Positions 1,569-27,409 of a stretch of 32,912 nt of DNA are shown one piece after another. The notes under the pieces are model-generated. The model had not been told where the DNA came from and did not search any database. It worked only from the letters and a program-made list of their open reading frames with translations. Source of the DNA: Catajapyx aquilonaris (taxonomy: Eukaryota). The stretch covers positions 1 to 32,912 of the forward strand of contig JYFJ02004331.1 of the NCBI GenBank assembly GCA_000934665.2. The letters are read 5' to 3'. A program made the position numbers and the translations under genes. The stretch's first letter is position 1, and each line of letters begins with the position of its first letter.

Positions 1569-14239
<12,671 letters not shown>

Positions 14240-16818
14240 CCTCAGAGGGGTAGGGTGGTTGCTGCCTCATCTGCCAGCGGGTCAATCACCAGGCGGAGGA
14301 GTAGCCACCCACAGCACCAGCCCACCCGTCTCCTCTACAGGCAAGAGCATCATCATGTGGTTGGGATGGGTGGGATGCGCATGGGTGTTGTTGTTGCAAC
14401 ATGGTCTTCAGCAAGAGGTGGAGGTGGTAGTGGGAGATGAATTGTTCAACCCCACTGGAAAAAAATTAAGATGTTTTAAGTGCGCTTCCAAATTCTGTTA
14501 CTTGTGAAGGCCTCTTCTGGGTCTCTTGTGGCTCTCACAGGTGCGTATAGGACATTTGTGAGCACTCTAAGCTGGTATGATCAGGACTTATCTTTTTGTG
14601 ATTTACTTGTGGTATGGAAAAAAATTGCCCTTCGATTTAATTTTTGGAAATATGTTTCGGTGAGAAGAACAGATTGATGGAACCCTGTCATCCTGTGGAT
14701 GGCGTAGTGGAAGGATGTGAGGTGCTTTCATAATTTGTACCAGAACATTTATTTTGTAATTGCCTAAATTTTGTGTGACTGAAGGTTTTTTGCTGCCATG
14801 TCCAACTCAACACATGTACTGAAAAAATCTTTCCCTCCTATGAAATGATACGTGACTAAAATTGTGTATATGTCATTGCAAACATTTTATAACATGGGAA
14901 AGTTGAATCTGCATGTGGGGAGAAGAATTTTCATCGAGACCAGTTTTTTTGCTTGCCACGACTGAGTGCAAGCCTCAATAGAAGTCCGATCAAAAAGGAT
15001 CACTGCCAACAGCTTTTCTCTTGCCAGCTCTTTCAGGACCCATATGACATTTTAGCTAAAAGCCATCTACAGTGGGAACATATCTGGGAAAACCACTTCT
15101 GGCTGGTCCTGATAAAGCCCAAAGCACAGACCATGAATACTTTAAGCTACCTGCTTTTTGAGATCTGATTCATCAGATAGAGTAATACTCTTTCTTGAGA
15201 ACTGACAGTTGATATAATGTGTTGTTAATATCCAGAGAGTTTCCCTTGTCCCCATATATCCCAACAGTTACCAGATAAAGATTGATTGCTTATGTACATC
15301 ACTATAGTGTATATGACTGAAACACCTGCCTCTCTCTAACTTTTTTTTTTTGTTTTCCTCTCTCTCTCTTGGAAATGATCATTAGGAGTGGGGATGGGCC
15401 AGATGAGAAGCAAATTTGTCAGTTGTGGATGTGGTGTGCAGATTATTATGCTTTTAATATCTCGAACTAGTTTTTCGATAAATGTTTTCATTGGTGTTAT
15501 CACAACTTCACTGAACTAATTTTGCCTTGTCACAACGCTTAAGATGAGCAGCTCATGTCGAGGTTGCCAAATGTGAAGTCATTTTATATTGGCCATCCTG
15601 TCAGATTCAGAATGAGTGCATGATTCACATTGTTTAAGGGAAGAAGGATGATGTGTGCGTGAGAGAATGTCATCCTTCCCTACCGCCCAGTTTTTTGCGT
15701 GTGAATTAATGCCTTTAATTTTTGGTGCCAACATGTAGTGTAATATTATTGTCAGACCCATTTCTACTGAATGGAAAAGGGCCTTGGTAGCTTCCTGATT
15801 TTTATTTTTTATTTTTTATTTTTTGTTTTTTTTTGTTTTTTTTTGTGAAGGGAATAATAATGGGTGGTGCTGTTTTGTAGTATCTTGTGCTGCGTAAGGT
15901 TATCCTTGATTTCCTTTGTGAAGTATTCTTCATTTGTAATCATTTGTGTACTATATATTGTACTGCTTTGAAGCGAAAACAAACTGCACCCAGAGAAAGA
16001 TATGTCTGGAAGAAGTTCCACCGATGTTGTGTTGTTATCTTTGTAATGACTCTCGTAACACCAAACTTTTTGCACAAGAGAATGCATCCCCCCCACTTTA
16101 TATACTGGCGTTTCTTACCAATCAGGTGTAAGCAGAAGAAAAGTGAAGAAGTGAATCCCAAAAGTTGTTCCTTAGCTTGGTTGGAATTTCAAAAGTATGG
16201 TAAATTGTGGTTGTGGTTTAATTTCCAGTATTCTCCTGCCCATTTTAATTTTCAGCAGTTTTTTTAAAGGATTTGGAGTAGGAACGGTTTGTTTTCATGT
16301 TCATGAAAGCATTCTGGTATATACGAAATATAGGGTAAATATATGGTTGAAAGACTTAAAATTTTGCTGTTGTGTCACAGACATGGATTATGCAATCAAA
16401 AACACTAAAACAATGTGTTCATTATGCAGTGTTTCATGAGTGGTGATAAACATTTAAGTAACAAGTGTGAGAACCTTTTTTTCTGACATTCCTGGAGTGA
16501 TAGTATGGATAAGTGATACTGAAGCACTTGCGTTGGAAACAAAAAGGCCCCAAAGAAATGTCACTGTGATACATTTCAGATTAGAGGCAAGGCCATGGTT
16601 AATTTAGGGCTCATTAGGATGAGGTAGGATAGATTGGGTTACATGGAGTATCTTTGTTTCGGTGGGTTGGCACTCCCGGTACCATACACTACATCGGCGC
16701 ATTTTTTCGGGACCATTATATTTCAGAGATTGTGGCTTCAGAATTGATTTCAAGATATCTATACACAAGTTTTCATGTGCCATGATGCAAGTTTGGCGGC
16801 ATCATGATTTCTAGCAGC

Positions 16819-17023
16819 CAGTGGTTCTCAGTGTGTGGTCCATGGTCGACTAGTGACTGATCTGATTCAGGTTACCACATCGCCTATATTGTGGGGGTGA
16901 ATGGGTAAGAGACAACCAAAGGCAACAGCCTAGATGCATATAGTTATGTGCTTATATCAAGCTGAAGTAGGCCACTGGATCTTTTTCCCTCCTTAGTTGT
17001 GGTGAAAAGTTGCAGAACCATTG
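16819..17023. mobile_element. Degenerate hAT (Charlie/Buster-like) MITE
   Basis: CAGTGGTTCTCA ... gcagaaccattg ends; TSD not convincing. Confidence 0.42.
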
Positions 17024-17886: not shown

Positions 17887-20800
17887 GTACTGCAGATGGG
17901 AAGGGGGCAGGATGGTCGTAAGGGAGGGTGCATACATAGTCGGGCCAAGAAAAACATGACAGCATTTCAGCATAAATATTGTTGACAGCAGGGATATGAA
18001 TGTGATTATTCGCCACCAGGGTTTACCTGTTTTCATTGTCGATATGAAAATATGGCACCTCTGCAGAGGTAGTTTGAAACTTATTTCTGAAATCTAAAAA
18101 CTCTTTAAGCGATTGTGATGGTGGATTCAGGAAGTGACATAAGTGCTGATTTCGTATGATCACAAAATGGGCATGCTGTTCAAGTGTATGTGGGCAGCAG
18201 TTAAGGAATTTGTGTTGTAAACCTGGGAGATCTGAGCGTTGGTCCTCTTCCACACTGGACCACAACAACATCGGAGGTGTAGGATCATGAAATAGGGTAT
18301 ACCTGGATGCAAGACACCTGCGGTATAGATTAAAGTTAAGTGTACTTTGTCTCAGCTACATGGTGTAGCTGAGACAAAGTACACTTAACTTTAATCTGTA
18401 CCCTCAGGTTGTCTTGTATCCAGGTATCCTTTATTTCCTGATGCACCACCTTTGTACTGGCATAAACTTGTTACAATTTCTCCAGCTATTCATCTGGCCA
18501 GCCATACCTTTCTCCATAGCACTAGGTTCCTGAAGGCTCCTTTAATCAAACTAAGGCCCCCTTTACACCCCTTCCATTAAGTTTTCTAGTCAGAGAAACA
18601 ATACACAAATCATAAATGTGGTGCATCTGAAATTATTCTTAACAAAGCACTTGCAAATGCAAAAAAAAAAAATACATGTCTTATTTTTTGACTATTTCCA
18701 TTTGTAGAATGGTTGGTTGACTCTATACTGGCTATCACACTCTGTATTTGACTCTCTGTCTCCCGCTTGCTGCTGCACGTTTTGGGTGGGGGTATGAAAA
18801 TAGCGCCCTAGGTGAAAATTACTGGATCTGGCACCATTGCATTGGTTTCACTCTCGATTCATGCATAAGATGGGGCTGAAGCGTCCGATACCTACAAACC
18901 TGAGTTGCATCTTGAGAGAGCCATGTACCACCTCATATGCTTTGCACGAGAAGGTGACGTTATCGTATTGTGACATCTACGTTTTGTTTTTTTTGGGCGG
19001 CTTCCACCCATTGAAAAAATCCAAGATAAATCTATATGATTGCCCACTACCTCTAATAAATTATGAAAACATGAAGTGTCTGTTAAAATTCTTTTAAAGG
19101 TCCGGTTTAAGCAGAGGTAATGTGAGTCACCAGGTGCAAAAAAAAGTAGCTCAGGTGTCAAGCGGGCACCGGAGCAGTCCGCCAGGCCAATTAGGAGCAA
19201 GTACACTTTTTACTGCCAAAATGGCGCGGGGGGAGATTGCCTACCCATCACAGATCGTTCTGATTTTTTAATTGGCAAAAAGTAAGTCGCAGAATATCAG
19301 GAATTTTTAAATGGTGTTCAGCTGCACGTCCACTTACCGGAAAATATGCAGCAGGGAGCTATATGTATTTAAATTCATGCAGTAAATGTTTGTTTACAAT
19401 GAATGAGATCTTTGACGTCGTGCCATTAAAAATATCAAGCGAGTGGCGTAAATACTCATGAATGAACATTAGCCTTAGGTAACTCTTCTACAGGGTGTTT
19501 CAGAGTCACGGGTCAAGCCCGTGAGGGGGTGGGGAAAAATCGTAGGTGGCGACAACCCCGATCGGTTTTATAAAACAATTAGAAATACGGGAGTAATCAA
19601 TTATTTTATTACGGCGTGATGTCACATCCTTTCTGTTCGAATTGACTGGCGCGGACTGGCAGCTGCCGTGGGTTGAACCTGGTTGAACGGCTTTTTAGCC
19701 TTGCGGCTTGCACTGAAAAAGGCTCTCTCATGCTATACTGGGAGGGTACTGTACAAAGTAGTGTACTGTACAGTAGTGTGTACAGTACCCTGCCGGTATA
19801 GCATGAGAGCGCCCTTTTCAGTGCAACCCTCAAGACTGAAAAGCCGTTCAACCAGGTTCAACCGACGGCAGCTGCCAGTCCTCGCCAGGCAATTCGAACA
19901 GAAAGGATGTGACGTCACGCTGTAATAAAATAATTGATTACTGCCGTATTTCTAATTGTTTTATAAAACCGACCGGGGTTGTCGCCACCTACGATTTTTC
20001 CCCACCCCCTTGTGCGCGCTTGACCCTTGACTCTGAAACACCCTGTAGTTTCTATGGTGAAAGAAATTTTCGTCGGGGTTATACCAGTGAATTTTAAACA
20101 ATTCTTTTGTTTCGTTGCAGTATAATGCAACCAAAATGGCTGCCAGAGACAAAGGGTTAACAGGCAAATCACAATTATAAGATAGGCTGTAGCTGCATTA
20201 ATATAATATTATGCTGCATATAATGAAAGTTGTTAGCAGCTCATGTCAATTGTAATGTGTAGTTCTGTAGTGTTTATAGGTTCATATTTAACATGATTGC
20301 CCTTATGTTATGGTACGATGTAACTATTATGCACTAGTGCAGTGGTTCTTAACCTGGGGTGCGAGTGTGGCTCCCCTGGGGGTGTGAGCAAGGTGCACTT
20401 CTTGACTTACGTTAGTCTAATTATGAACTTAATCAATCACCACTGGTATAGGGGGTGCGACAAGGACCAACTGTCTTCAAAGTGGTCCAGAGGCCCGAAA
20501 AGGTTAAGAACCCCTGCATTAGTGCAAAGCCCAAAACCACAAACCAAGGGAGAGGGTGAGGGAGAAGTTATGGATTATTTGAGGGGTTGAGAGCAAGAAT
20601 GGCGTATGCCACTCAATTGGCTAAACTGAGTTATCACCACAGATAGAATCCTCACACTGTATTCTACCAGTGTCACAGACTAAATGCATCTGTTGGGATG
20701 CGTTATCTGAATGAAAAGAGCACCCAAACTTTCCGATTAACATTGAGGAGATAGGCAATTAATACTTTATTTACTTTTGTTTCTAATGTGGCATACGCCA

Positions 20801-23800
20801 TTCTTGTTCTCAACCCCTCATTTGTTTCAGATGGAGTGGCGCCGCGGTAACGCGTGCGCCCACGGAAGTTAAGGTCCCGGGTTCAATCCCCACCCGGGGT
20901 TCCCACCTTCTTTCGTGCAGAGTTGGGCCATCTCTGGCTTCGTTTCGGGTGGCAATTTCCGATAGACTAAGCCACCCGGGGGAGTTCACAAAATGACCAA
21001 TTAACGACAGCACACATGCACTTTGCACATCCCCTCCTAACTACCTTGGAGTATACTAATAAGATTATTCTTAACTCGCTCCAAAAAACAAATACCAATG
21101 GTGGTAATCCACCACCCCCCTATAGACCCAACAGGTCATCACGGGGTAAATTTAAAAAAAAAAAAAACTCATTTGTTTCAGAAACTATTTTAAAGAGAAA
21201 CTTTAACTATGTCCAGTAAATGTGACCCTGGCTGTAGCGAAAATGTAGAAAAGAGCAACAAAAGCCTTTTCCGACGTCCCCATTCCTGGGCTGTGGATTT
21301 GTGCACCTCTAGAAACAACTTAATTATGATATGGTCATATTATTTAAAAGGATGTCATAATGCAAAAATTGCGTTGGGAATACTCTCTGGGGCTTTTAAG
21401 TAATTAGCTATCATAATGCCAATTTTCAGCTCATTTGGTCTGGAAACAGGTTATAATTTTTATAACAATCATGCAAACAAAATTAGGGATTCATATGTTG
21501 AGATATAGCCTACTGTATACCTTGTAATATGTCATGGTTGCAATGTAATTTATTTTAAAGTAAGTGAATATCTTCCAGAACAACCCCACCTGCAAGAGTG
21601 TAGAGTTTAATTTGTTTTATTAAACATTGCCATAATAATAATGTGACCTGCCTTAAGGAAGGCTCTGCCTCAAGTTCTATTACTGGAAGGTTATGGGCAG
21701 GCCTCTGGTGATGCCAATTGTAGGATTGATCATGAAAATAATTCTTAACTGTTGCAAAATGATATCTGACTCTTTTTTCTCTAATCCATGTTTATTTCTC
21801 TCGAAAAGGTGCACAAAAACATCTTGGCGATGAGCAGTCCCGTGTTTGAGGCCATGTTTTATGGCTCCTTGGCTGAGGACTCAGTTGTTCAGATAACCGA
21901 CATCAAGCCAGAGACATTCCAGAAACTCCTCATGTATATATACAAGGACACACTGGACCTCATGAACATTGTGGAGGCTTGGGATTTGTGGTATGCCGCC
22001 AACAAATATCTTCTCAGGCACTTGGCACAACAGTGTCTGACGGTGAGTCATATTTGTTCATATCATAATATTTTTGTTTTCATAAGACTGAGGGAAGCAG
22101 GCACAAGAACATGACATATAGCCTGGTCAGTATGTACTTGAGTTGTTTCATAAGTCATGGCGTGTATTTTAAAATTAAAAAACCGTAACACATACAGAGA
22201 TGACCTTTGTTGAGTTTTGAATCTCCGGCGATTGCAATTTGAGCTAGCATATAGGGGAGGCAGGGAAACAAAAGGGGATCATGACCTCCCAACTGCACCA
22301 GCACCCTAAGAAGGCCTGAGCCTGACGCACTTGGAGCTGTTGGATGCTGCATGCTGGACAGTCGGCGATGGACAACACAGGAGCTTGCTTTCGAGTGTGG
22401 GACAAGTCAGAGCACTATGCTTAGGACTCTGAAAGACTGAAGAGTCTTAGGAAGTTGGCATCCTCACTGGTTCCTCACCATCTCTTTGAGGTGCAAAAGA
22501 ACTTTGCCTTCGCTTGGAACTCGATTGCATTGAGGGCGATGTTTTTTTCAAACAGTTTGTGGTGATGGATAACACATGGATCCGGTCATAGTGCTCTGAC
22601 TTCCCCCCCATGAGGGCCCTGCCCTGAAACGGGGTAACTAAATAAAATAATAAATAATAGTGCTCTGACTTGTCCCACACTCGAAAGCAAGTTCCAGTGT
22701 TGTCCATAGCCGAGTGTCCAGCATGCAGCATCCAACAGCTCCCAAGCGCGTCAGCTCGGGCCTTCTTAGGGCGCTGGTGCGGTGGGGGGCTCATGATCCC
22801 CTTTTGTTTCTCTGCCTCCCCTGCAATATGGGCAACATCTATATGCTAGCTCAAATTGCAATTGCCGGAGCTTCAAAACTCAGCAAAGGTCATCTCTGTA
22901 TGTGTTACTGTTTTTGAATTTTAAAATACACACCATGACTTACGAAAGAACCCACGTAAAAAAAATCACACAAATTGAAAAGACTCCTTCAATAGCCTGA
23001 TATTCTCTTGGATTATGCCATATATTTCAAAAGTAAACGGATCACTACCTTAGAGGAAATTCCATGCATCCTCCTGGTGTTGATATCCTCAAATTGAAAT
23101 TCTGTACAAAGTTGGCTGCAGTTCCTGTTCACATCTTTCAACCTGGGTGCAAACGTTAGCATGCCCTGCATGTGGAATTTTCACTGATATGGAACTGAGA
23201 TATTCATTAAGACATGTCAGCTCTCTTGATATGTTACGCTACCCCAGGAGGGCTAGAACCAACAAGTATTCCGTTTTTCCCTGCATCCAGGCTCCTGATG
23301 ATGTTTTTTTGGTTTGTTCTTTTTATTATTTATTTTACCTCGCGCTAGAGAACAAATAATGCTCTTATTATAACTTCAATCTCCAGTGCAAGGAATCAAG
23401 GATGTAGGGTAGGGATAGGGATTTTTGGGGAGGGGACACAGGTGCAAGTGCAATGTCGTTAAACGGGCCATGTGCAGTCCCCCAGGAGGTTAGGTTTCCA
23501 CACACCCTCGCCTTGCGGGTCATAGACCCTCCTGATGCAGGCGAAAGGGAAATCCCAGGCGGGGATCGAACCCAGGACCTCTCGCTCAGCAAGCCAAGCC
23601 GTTGCCGGCTCGGCCACCACGCTTCTCCACTCCTGATTATGTATGGATCAGGGAGGGGGAGCACTGAATGCATTGTAGGGTACTAACCACTGGTTGTGGC
23701 TGGATAGCACCAGAGTGTCTGCGATTGAAGTTTGCAATAACTAAAAGGACCCCAACACTTGGAACATACTATATGAAGACCTCAGGGGGAAATGATCAAG

Positions 23801-26800
23801 GTCCACTTTTTGTCAAAAATTAGTATCTCAGAAGATAGTTTCACTTGTTTAGAATATGATGGTTTGGTCTTGGTTGTGGAGTAATGATCATAGGTCACTA
23901 TTGGAAGGCCCTGAAAGTGGGATTTACAATGGAACCTTATGGGCCTTTGAAATTGAAAATTGGAATATATCTCAGTTTCCCCTGAGGTAGACCTTGATCG
24001 TTCTTCCCCTGAGGTCTTCATGTATGAAATAGCACACAGTCATTTATTGTTGTTTATCAGGAATTGGCATACATTCTTCTAGCTTTACTTTCATGCCACT
24101 GTTGTTTTTATTGGATTAACAGTCAGTCTGTTATTTTCAGGACATTGAAGACAAAATGACCGATTTTTATGTGATGTATACTCTCGAAAAATCAATGGAG
24201 TACAATCTGCCTGATTTGGAAGCCAAATGTTTAAGGGTGAGTGGCATTTCTCTGGATTCTGGAACAGTTGGAAGCATTTATTTTTTAAATAGATCTCATA
24301 ATTCTTAAATTCTCTTCTAGTTTATTGACATCCATGCAGATGTGATTCTGAAGTCCCATCTCTCGTCAAACCGAACTACCGACTTTTTTCATGCAATGAA
24401 AGAGTCGATATTAAAGATTATTAGTCGTCCTCTTCTGACAGCAACTGAGGTTGAAATTTTTAAGGCGGTTAAAGAATGGGGTTTCCTGGGACTGCAGAGG
24501 GAGGGACTTCCAGTCACCCCAGAATCACTCCGGGACAGGATTGGAGCCCTTCTCCCCTACATACGCTTTCACAATATGACCCCTGACAAGTTTATGGAGC
24601 TGGTTGTTCCATCAGGACTTCTCACTCCAGAGCAGCTCAATGAGAATCTGCTTGTGCTCATGAGGAAGCTTCTGCCCTCTCACAAGGTAAAATTTCTCTT
24701 GGGAAGAGAATAAGTTGCAACCCTCTATGCCAAGTGGAATTATTATATTTTATGTATCAACAAAATGTAGCTGTCTGTACATCACTCATGATGGTGCCCA
24801 GTCTCATTGAATCACGTTAGGTATTTTTAGGATTTTTAACTGCCTGCCACTTTTTCCACCATGTACTAAGATGAAAGTCAACTGCAACAGCATGTTTTTG
24901 GTTTGGTGTCATGATTTCAATGACTTTCTTATGAGTAGTGAACCTGAAATGTACCATTTAACTGCAAAATGTTATTATCTTCCTCCAGGAGGAGACATAT
25001 CGCAAGTATGCTGTTCAGGTATGCTGTGAGCGAGGGACCCTGTATTCTCGATGCTCACAAATAGAAAAGTCGGATCACTTCCTGAAATTCAAGATATACA
25101 CATCCCGGGAACTGTCATGCTTGCTGACAGGTCTACGTGTGGCTAAGGCCCACACAGACAGCCCTTGCATGTTCTGCCAGCGAGAGAAGTACCTGCACCA
25201 TCTGCATAATGATCGGGAGTCACTTCATGATGAAGAAGATGAAGACGATGAAGAAGATGGGACTGAAAGGCGGCGCCTCACCTTGTCCTGTTCAGTGTCT
25301 GATTATGCTGACCAGCAGCTGGCATACTTTGATGGGGCCCTCACAGCATCACAGTATGATGTGGACTTCACTACACCTGTGTCATTGCAATCTGGAACTT
25401 TCTACACAATATGTGTCAGAGTAAGGGATTGATATTGGTTAGCCTATTGTGCCACAGCTTCTTTAATTTTATCAAGACCCATTGGAACAATGAATTTTGC
25501 CCTTACATAAGAAGGTTATTTAGAACCACTAATTTCATTGTCATTCTTCATGACTGCACATAGCCCAAAATATATTCCAGTTCACATGTTCTCATCTGTG
25601 CTTGATCCTCTGTGGATACTTGGCTGATTATGAGATTATTTGCAGCATCCACCGAACAAACTCATAGTGCCATTCAAGGTGCTTTCAAATACCCAATTCA
25701 CACTTTCAGTGGAGAGATTTCTGGGACAAAGGAACACTGCACTCCTTCCACTAGTTGGCCTCTCAAAATCAAGCAAAAACTGTAGATTCCAAGGGTGTGA
25801 TCTGTGTTTTTCCAAACTGAAATATAACACGAGGGTGAGAGTTCAAAGTCAACTGCAAAGCTGTCAGCTGTTAGGTAGGAGCACCACTATGTGATAAGAG
25901 GTGGAAAGGAGATAATGAGAGATTTGGTGAGCAACCCCCTGTCAACTCCACTTCTGGGAGAGAATGTGTGATTCAACTGCCTCTCACATTTAGAGACCCA
26001 TTCTTGCCTTACTAATCATGTCTGGTTTGCAACTTTGCTGGGATGGTGTTGGAGGTCCCTTTGTTTGATGAACCAACCTTAACAAATGATACTTTTTTCC
26101 TTACTTTGATCTCTCACCCTAGGGTGACCTTTTAGTTCCAAGAAAAACAGATTGCACCTTTGGAATTAAGATGTTTTGTCTGATTTTTACAGCCTAACTT
26201 GTTGAAGGTGTACAGTGTTTCAGCCGTTGTGTTACAGCCCTCTAAATTCCTGCAGCAAGTAGTTGTTTACATCGTTCTATTCCGGTGACCTCTGATGACA
26301 TGCCAAATAAAAAAATTTCATGTGAACGTTGTAGATACTCGTGAACATTGCCTGTGTTTCCCAAAGCTATAATGAAAATTATTATGCTAGAAGTGATTCC
26401 AATGTCTAAAAAATTTTAAAGGTTAGTAGAGTGATTATATATTACCAAAATAGCCCCCAGCAGGCACTGGGTTAACCCTGCAATAGCTGTGCTAGGTCTT
26501 AAAAATTGCACAGAACATCTTCATTTCCTGAAACATTCTAAGTTACTATTTGTTCACTCTATTGGTATTTTGAAAAACTACAGACCTTTCATAGTTGCCT
26601 ATCTCATTTCCTGCCAGAGAAAGTGGAATGCCAATAAGTCTTCATATGCAATTTATAGAAGTGCTGTGCTAGGGTTGTTGCTAGCCTGAGTAGTTACATC
26701 GACTTATATGATTCTGCCTTTATGCAGGTCCTAGAAAATGTGAGCCTGTGCTGCTGCCGAGGAAACTGCAAACAGAAAGTGAACTGTGGAGAGCTGACCG

Positions 26801-27081
26801 TTGAATTCTACTCTGATCCACGCTCTCCATTTACCAACGTCAACACTGGCCTCATCACCCACCTGTTCTTCTACATGCCTAAAGGCACTGGATGTTTACC
26901 TGATCAAGAGTCTGCTGCTGCTTCTGCTTCCCTTGCAACAGCCTGCAGTGATCCTGGGTCATCACAACCTCTTGACCTCAAATGCGAGAAGGTGGAGTGC
27001 CCAGCACCACCCCCAACACCCCAGTCATCTGCTGGTGAGGGCAGTTCTCAGGTCAATCCTAAGAGGATGAGGACCAAGTAG
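17749..27081 (+). CDS. BTB-BACK-PHR protein, divergent BTBD1/2/3/6 (lute)-like putative Cul3 adaptor. Exons 17749-17886, 21809-22042, 24141-24236, 24321-24686, 24989-25420, 26728-27081; ~539 aa
   Basis: DWQ...LYSDVTLAVG...EFK|VHKNILAMSSPVFEAMFYGSLAE (BTB); L..TEVEIFKAVKEWG and LLPYIRFHNMTPDKF (BACK); FTTPVSLQSGTFYTI and TNVNTGLITHLFFY (PHR-like). All introns are GT-AG and phase 0, and the frame is continuous. Confidence 0.88.
18273..18450. repeat. Intronic palindrome with a perfect 34-bp stem and 3-nt loop
   Basis: 18327-18360 is the exact reverse complement of 18364-18397; imperfect pairing continues ~50 nt outward. Confidence 0.93.
19491..20045. mobile_element. Tc1/mariner-type palindromic MITE
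   Basis: TA|CAGGGTGTTTCAGAGTCA TIR, TA TSD, ~265-bp arms. Confidence 0.92.
20048..20156 (-). mobile_element. piggyBac-like element end (TTAA|CCCTTTGTCTC on the minus strand)
   Basis: ...gagacaaaggg|ttaa; homologous to 7259-7746. Confidence 0.65.
20340..20516. mobile_element. hAT (Charlie/Buster-type) MITE
   Basis: TIR CAG(T/G)GGTTCTTAACCT; 8-bp TSD cactagtg/cattagtg with central TA. Confidence 0.9.
20581..20819. mobile_element. Sola-like MITE
   Basis: 32-bp TIR GAGGGGTTGAGA(G/A)CAAGAATGGCGTATGCCAC; 4-bp TSD ATTT on both sides. Confidence 0.78.
20832..21167 (+). mobile_element. tRNA-derived SINE (family B)
   Basis: A box tggcgccgcgg, B box ggttcaatccc, poly(A) tail, exact 15-bp TSD ctcatttgtttcaga (20817-20831 and 21168-21182). 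Confidence 0.9.
21809..22042 (+). CDS. BTB-BACK-PHR gene, coding exon 2 (BTB core)
   Basis: aag acceptor; VHKNILAMSSPVFEAMFYG...YAANKYLL...CLT; donor gtgagt at 22043. Confidence 0.92.
22137..22956. mobile_element. Mariner-derived fold-back element with inverted 5' ends and a transposase remnant in the spacer
   Basis: TA-flanked ~280-bp arms; spacer encodes RKLASSLVPHHLFEVQK (WVPHEL-like) and EGDVFFKQFVVMDNTWI (VTGDETW-like). Confidence 0.87.
23365..23628 (-). mobile_element. tRNA-derived SINE (family A copy)
   Basis: Reverse complement ggagaagcgtggtggccgag...ggttcgatccccgcctggga matches the head and body of 2364-2701. Confidence 0.88.
23772..24022. mobile_element. TA-flanked MITE with ~35-bp TIRs
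   Basis: atgaagacctcagggg...gatcaaggtc versus gaccttgatc...cccctgaggtcttcat. Confidence 0.75.
24141..24236 (+). CDS. BTB-BACK-PHR gene, coding exon 3 (3-box/BACK start; not in the supplied ORF track)
   Basis: ttttcag acceptor; DIEDKMTDFYVMYTLEKSMEYNLPDLEAKCLR; donor gtgagt at 24237. Confidence 0.85.
24321..24686 (+). CDS. BTB-BACK-PHR gene, coding exon 4 (BACK)
   Basis: ttctag acceptor; FIDIHADVILKS...IRFHNMT...SGLLT...HK; donor gtaaaa at 24687. Confidence 0.9.
24989..25420 (+). CDS. BTB-BACK-PHR gene, coding exon 5 (PHR-like, with acidic insert)
   Basis: cctccag acceptor; open frame of 144 codons; donor gtaagg at 25421. Confidence 0.82.
26728..27081 (+). CDS. BTB-BACK-PHR gene, terminal coding exon
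   Basis: tgcag acceptor; VLENVSLCCC...TNVNTGLITHLFFY...PKRMRTK*. Confidence 0.85.
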   Translation, partial: VLENVSLCCCRGNCKQKVNCGELTVEFYSDPRSPFTNVNTGLITHLFFYMPKGTGCLPDQESAAASASLATACSDPGSSQPLDLKCEKVECPAPPPTPQSSAGEGSSQVNPKRMRTK

Positions 27082-27087
27082 AGAGTG

Positions 27088-27409
27088 ACCAAGGCAGCCT
27101 AGTCTAGTGGTTAGGCATTCAGGCTGCCATACGGGAGGTCCTGGGTTTGAATCCCAGGGCTGACCGTCCTGACTCGGGGCTTTCATGTATTTCCCCTGGT
27201 CGCTTCCAGGATAATTCTGGAATGGTTTCCTTTGCAAAAGGCCATGGCCACTTCCTTCCTTCCCTGTCCTCCTCCTTTATGGTGTCATATACTACTTTTA
27301 GCTATCTCCTTTACTTGATTCCTCGTTGATTGGTCATGATTATTATGGTGCAGCATCAAAAGGTTCTTAAGAGCCATAATGCCTGATCCCTATAAACCAA
27401 CCAACCAAC
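27088..27409 (+). mobile_element. tRNA-derived SINE (family C) at the start of the gene 2 3'UTR
   Basis: A box tagtctagtgg, B box ggtttgaatccc, (AACC)n tail. Confidence 0.75.

Follow-up and report, generated by a model that had tools for sequence, protein, structure and literature searches.

A candidate stop-codon readthrough extension in the BTBD10-like gene of Catajapyx aquilonaris

Functional stop-codon readthrough has been estimated to concern 5-6% or more of stop codons in Anopheles and Drosophila, and is described as abundant in Pancrustacea (Jungreis et al. 2016, PMC5100048). In the excerpts of a recent preprint considered here, the genes concerned are characterised by UGA-C, by G at both +9 and -7, and by a GC-rich structured sequence reaching to about 75 nt after the stop, while their extensions are long, tend towards disorder and contain little L, K, N, I and F (Makarova et al. 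2026 preprint, PMC13278127). UGA-C is described in the same excerpts as the leakiest context, and it rises with the readthrough tier in Drosophila. As for stimulatory RNA structures, a spacer length of 7-12 nt and a stem length of 10-14 bp are given in the corresponding excerpts of Firth et al. 2011 (PMC3159437).

We analysed a stretch of 32,912 nucleotides (contig JYFJ02004331.1 of Catajapyx aquilonaris), hereafter called the window, which carries a BTBD10-like gene with a further open frame and an RNA hairpin just past its stop codon. Judged from its sequence, the gene is a plausible, unproven new member of the pancrustacean stop-codon readthrough genes, a reading to which we give an even chance. 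We found no paper on readthrough or on an extended isoform of the BTBD10/KCTD20/mrityu family (for mrityu, among the matches listed).

The gene and its stop codon

By its domains and conserved regions, we identify the gene in the window as the arthropod orthologue of BTBD10/KCTD20, called mrityu in the fly. The BTB_3 domain (PF16017) was detected on exon 1 (E 5.6e-09) and exon 2 (E 4.4e-35), and the central and C-terminal regions conserved in the family are both present. With the 82 residues of exon 4 (11619-11864) as a query, 1709 of 1749 candidates were recovered as relatives at E <= 0.001, and the best 120 of these 1709 were BTBD10, KCTD20 or 'mrityu' proteins from arthropods and other animals with identities of 84-100%; exon 4 is 93-100% identical to the arthropod orthologues. 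For the protein of the window, the best identity was 79%, to a hemipteran protein, and a quick tree left the window unplaced, outside the TGA-C clade described below. BTBD10 is an adaptor linked to Akt, and the symbol of its fly orthologue mrityu is mri.

The gene model rests on record 1 of sequencing run X1, a contig of 2782 nt which matches the window with 0 mismatches in the blocks 1601-1852, 5697-5914, 9592-9789, 11617-11864, 13829-14128 and 14204-15330, with GT..AG at each joint. The run is kept as contigs and its kind is not on record as RNA, and in DNA a retrocopy would look alike; we took the contig as transcript-like because five introns are skipped. Its exons, the TGA stop, the extension and 1.09 kb past the stop lie on one mRNA-like molecule, so that, according to this contig of a kind not recorded as RNA, the stop and the in-frame open frame downstream share one mature mRNA. 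The features at the end of the coding region are the following.

13829-14128, + strand: penultimate coding exon (exon 5), 100 codons, ending ..YPEE; joined on both sides in the X1 contig, splice sites and frame checked
14129-14203, + strand: intron of 75 nt, GT..AG, phase 0; X1 record 1 has the joint 14126->14202, 'skips 75, GT..AG (cut +2)'
14204-14236, + strand: last 11 sense codons; translation and tail alignment place them on the C-terminal motif that the family conserves
14237-14240, + strand: stop TGA with C at +4 (UGA-C), in the sequence and in the X1 contig with 0 mismatches

The original prediction had assumed an acceptor at 14204 and noted a TGA stop followed by C. The acceptor proved to be used, as record 1 skips 14129-14203, and both the sequence and the contig have TGA at 14237-14239 and C, the base of the leak-prone context, at 14240.

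A tail motif of the type PYPEVQLPPEDLP followed by the stop is shared by horseshoe crab, ticks, millipede, sea hare, springtail and insects, and the spliced end of the window (..YPEE plus the last 11 residues) was aligned stop to stop with this motif of the orthologues; when the pattern is taken loosely, the motif closes 60 of 115 tails. On this alignment, the UGA at 14237-14239 is the family's own stop, and the main product is the conserved form with an acidic C-terminus. An added tail would cover a free C-terminus that is conserved.

A UGA adjoining structured RNA also invites the idea that the codon is recoded otherwise, either as selenocysteine or through A-to-I editing to UGG. This appears extremely improbable: neither SECIS nor any other Rfam family matched in 13800-17000 at E up to 1, which led us to reject the selenoprotein candidate; the X1 contig has TGA and no other letter at this place (contigs drop rare variants); and orthologues end at the same position with other stop codons.

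Separately, the annotated decapod proteins P0002, P0021, P0034, P0039 and P0041 diverge right after ..YPE, which is the position of the 75-nt intron, and the unspliced reading of the window (14129-14182) resembles the end of P0002 (IKSKSDQP). Two explanations are suggested by these observations: a terminal form that is alternative or retains the intron, or a last mini-exon overlooked by the annotations.

Three further observations were made elsewhere in the window. A second BTB gene (PF00651, E 3e-17), which also has a weak BACK match, is located downstream at 21785-27081 on the same (+) strand, and directly after its last open frame there is a tRNA-Gly(GCC)-like sequence at 27093-27165 (+), scoring 29.1 against an Rfam gathering threshold of 29, which may represent either a tRNA gene or a repeat derived from a tRNA. 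Inside intron 1, positions 2068-2601 are covered by X1 contigs at a depth of 68.9 versus about 13 for the BTBD10-like gene, with loose ends at 2363, 2384 and 2441; a repeat, or an abundant transcript distinct from that of the gene, could account for this coverage.

The open frame and the RNA structure past the stop

Beyond the stop, we distinguish the following features.

14240-14437, + strand: in-frame extension of 66 codons, rich in R, S, G, H and V, with an RRRSS site at residues 18-22; an open frame, with the best codon log-odds in this frame
14438-14440, + strand: second in-frame stop, TGA, with AT-rich composition beyond
14441-15330, + strand: remaining 3' UTR on the same X1 contig, record 1 of which covers 14202-15330 without mismatch
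14250-14313, + strand: hairpin separated from the stop by a 10-nt spacer, with an 11-bp main stem that pairs 14253-14263 with 14300-14310; MFE -33.9 kcal/mol
14318-14377, + strand: second, imperfect inverted repeat inside the extension, arms 73% complementary, part of the fold of the whole 204-nt extension

All that had been noted here from the sequence was recovered: the frame of 66 codons runs open to the TGA at 14438-14440, the segment that was said to be GC-rich and to turn AT-rich after the second stop changes from a GC content of 0.52-0.56 to 0.37-0.42, the second open frame is there (14133-14507), and the 11-bp pairing forms with its inward extension. The caveat given with that prediction, that composition alone could explain the frame, also holds. 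The 201-nt stretch contains 41 A, and dinucleotide shuffles stayed open for at least 66 codons in 819 of 5000 cases for 201 nt, 671 of 5000 for 300 nt and 224 of 5000 for 500 nt; besides, frame +1 is open for 88 codons, so that two of the three frames are open. The open frame is by itself within chance for this G-rich, A-poor stretch, and the extension is no longer than chance allows.

These results bear directly on the main alternative, namely that the segment is an ordinary 3' UTR, in which termination at the UGA is efficient, readthrough is noise, the frame is open owing to the G-rich, A-poor composition of the first 200 nt, and the hairpins have another role or none. We give this alternative somewhat less than an even chance. 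A frame within chance, with two frames open, counts in its favour, and the database searches are in keeping with it as well: the extension peptide had 0 matches among 1.84 billion protein representatives, a word search with a query spanning the readthrough junction returned 0 longer proteins among 764 candidates. The tail exon as a query gave 2 matches only. The change in composition at the second stop is, however, left unexplained by an ordinary UTR, and so is the codon use. When scored with the usage of the 416 codons of the BTBD10-like gene itself, the extension reached log-odds of 19.7 bits in frame 0, 2.6 in frame +1 and -16.3 in frame +2 (for comparison, exon 5 gave 78.5, -5.4 and -26.2 in the same frames). 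Dinucleotide shuffles in which frame 0 was kept open scored at least as high as the real extension in 72 of 2000 cases, versus 0 of 2000 for exon 5. The codon-use signal of the extension is weak, in the direction expected for coding. As a coding candidate, frame +1 (14133-14507) was rejected for its lower codon score and for needing a splice or a frameshift that was not observed.

The hairpin stands out more clearly. Cropped to its 64 nt, a choice which favours the hairpin, it folds at -33.9 kcal/mol versus -21.2 +/- 2.8 for shuffles (z -4.54), and within a context of 104 nt the excess is weaker (z = -1.88). Over the whole window and both strands, 12 of 8212 windows of 64 nt reach -33.9 kcal/mol or lower, clustered at about 4 places besides this hairpin, and none of 350 GC-matched windows folds as well; the hairpin goes beyond chance. 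With its 10-nt spacer, it is also a stable stem within the distance of about 7-12 nt after the stop at which stimulatory stems lie. Very stable 64-nt hairpins, down to -46 kcal/mol at 34% GC, were seen in AT-rich sequence at 18321-18400, 7777-7840, 12585-12656 and 19737-19800, and are probably inverted repeats of mobile elements.

Structure extends over the 204-nt extension as a whole (z = -2.40), and the next 204 nt (14441-14644) have no excess (z +0.36). Because GC richness acts on frame length, hairpin energy and codon score alike, these three lines of evidence are not independent. In favour of an ordinary UTR, distant orthologues do not share the hairpin: in L068, L022, L018, L076 and L033, the folds of the 104 nt after the stop are no more stable than those of shuffles (z -0.74 to +1.73), and among these five the stem is neither conserved nor compensated.

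Orthologue tails and the TGA-C clade

With exon 4 as the query, metagenome contigs yielded 80 loci, many of them mRNA-like; 50 had a tail reaching the stop, which amounted to 47 distinct tails. The scan of genome contigs with the same exon found no relative. TGA-C occurs in 8 of the 47 distinct tails, all of them in one clade, whose tails begin ..DPxIDNFD: 8 of 10 tails inside the clade and 0 of 37 outside carry it, and by lineage, under our own grouping of near-identical rows, it is found in 5 of 7 within the clade. Loci of this IDNFD clade include L022:2165-2347, L025, L026, L068:10787-10867, L018:1750-1899, L076:1072-1098 and L033/L034/L039. That TGA-C recurs in a second, distant orthologue clade suggests that an extended form may recur in BTBD10 and may not be a one-off.

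Within the clade, L022 has a charged extension of 60 codons that is open in one frame only. L022 and L068 have RRHSVA in common right after the stop despite widely different coding tails, a likeness whose score was reached by 7 of 5000 shuffles, and one of its arginines is AGG in one locus and CGT in the other. These tails (L022 and L068) may make a better case for readthrough than the window's own. In the trio L033/L034/L039, the extension of 15 codons is free of indels and an 11-nt indel follows the second stop; 5 of 7 changes in this extension alter the residue, so that it says little.

The window and L068 also appear to be alike just past the stop. When the extension of 26 residues after the TGA-C of L068 was compared with all six frames of the window, the best match lay at 14243-14317, colinear with the stop. 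The alignment (18.9 bits, residues 2-26 of the window extension) has 11 identities over 22 residues, and composition-keeping shuffles of the window extension reached this score in 11 of 5000 cases. Among the 11 identities, 5 are encoded by different codons, two of which switch the serine codon family. In the reverse direction, residues 1-30 of the window extension were searched against 374,268 nt of the loci, and 4 chance hits scored higher and several equalled the 18.9 bits of L068. The likeness therefore counts only by its position, because chance hits in the reverse search are as good. Comparisons of the window extension with those of L022 and L018 were also tried, and rejected as not significant (3479 and 3503 of 5000 shuffles, respectively).

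An ordinary 3' UTR in the window agrees with the background level of the L068 likeness in the unrestricted search, and with the tails most like that of the window (L001, L002, L007, L011 and L014), which have other stop contexts in place of TGA-C and short AT-rich continuations in place of an extension. Fly mri is, moreover, in neither of the readthrough lists searched, that is, the 686-row list of Jungreis 2016 (PMC5100048) and the searched part of the tables of PMC13278127. The best match of the L068 extension falling in line just past the stop is, on the other hand, unexplained by an ordinary UTR.

The extension frame could also be reached by alternative splicing, through the following site.

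14244-14245, + strand: AG, putative alternative in-frame 3' splice site, read from the sequence

If used as a distal 3' splice site, this AG would join ..YPEE in frame to RGRVVAASS.., skipping the last 11 codons together with the stop; the AG at 14221-14222 would, in a variant of the same idea, give access to the second open frame. The phases agree, as exon 5 ends in phase 0 and 14246 begins a codon of the extension frame, L068 likewise has CAG directly after its TGA, and splicing can mimic readthrough in reporters, as noted in the excerpts of PMC13278127. We consider this route highly unlikely, however, since the joint at 14204 is the one listed in X1, and a strong pyrimidine tract precedes the AG at 14203, the distal AG being situated 42 nt further on in purine-rich sequence. 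In L068, besides, the coding frame runs without a break to the stop, and therefore there is no intron at hand.

A possible extended isoform, and comparison with known readthrough systems

We place readthrough ahead of the ordinary 3' UTR, which follows close behind. Four points go beyond chance, namely the hairpin, the codon use, the likeness to L068 and the recurrence of TGA-C in one clade; translation of the extension is weakly favoured by several weak and partly dependent lines, which are codon use, the spacer and stem, the L068 likeness and the TGA-C recurrence. Of the extended BTBD10 isoform put forward in the original prediction, the gene model, the stop, UGA-C, the hairpin and the open frame stood, whereas the hairpin is not kept in distant orthologues, libraries hold no match for the extension, and the frame is within chance.

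Under readthrough, in what we regard as the most likely view, a minority of ribosomes would decode the UGA by a near-cognate tRNA and continue, presumably helped by the hairpin after its 10-nt spacer. The longer isoform would carry a basic tail rich in Ser, Arg, Gly and His, probably disordered, that covers the conserved C-terminus. The tail would add the RRRSS site, which is of the kind used by basophilic kinases and may serve such a role here, and may be kept by selection.

It is tempting to go one step further. RRxS forms are found as RRHS in L022 and L068 and as RRRSS in the window, and it may be speculated that a leaky UGA-C is retained by BTBD10 in several pancrustacean lineages. Readthrough at this stop would swap the acidic free C-terminus for a basic RRxS tail and thereby make a minor isoform of an Akt-linked adaptor that basophilic kinases could control; in that case, an old extension missed by annotations would be common to the window and the IDNFD clade. 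This wider proposal we hold to be unlikely as it stands.

If readthrough in the window is genuine, a conserved signalling adaptor joins the pancrustacean readthrough genes, and the signal is compact and testable, consisting of UGA-C, a 10-nt spacer and one hairpin. If it is not, the locus illustrates that a 3' UTR which begins G-rich and A-poor can be mistaken for a readthrough extension.

Among the systems described in the excerpts of PMC3159437, Drosophila headcase and kelch and the alphavirus nsP3/nsP4 junction have UGA-C with a stem of at least 10 bp located 7-12 nt after the stop, to which the 10-nt spacer and the 11-bp stem, extending further, of the window are comparable. The stems of headcase, kelch and the alphaviruses have long loops (52 to 268 nt) and covariation to support them, whereas the hairpin of the window is compact and stands without comparative support from distant relatives. 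The pancrustacean readthrough genes, in the excerpts of their descriptions considered here, have a CA(A/G)N(U/C/G)A motif with A at +5, whereas the window has C at +5. Those genes are backed by a multi-species coding signature and ribosome profiling, whereas the gene of the window is a candidate read from its sequence. Pancrustacean readthrough itself is already known, and the BTBD10 of the window would be a new case of it: as in the genes described, there are UGA-C, G at +9 and -7, a structured GC-rich stretch and a long, probably disordered extension poor in L, K, N, I and F.
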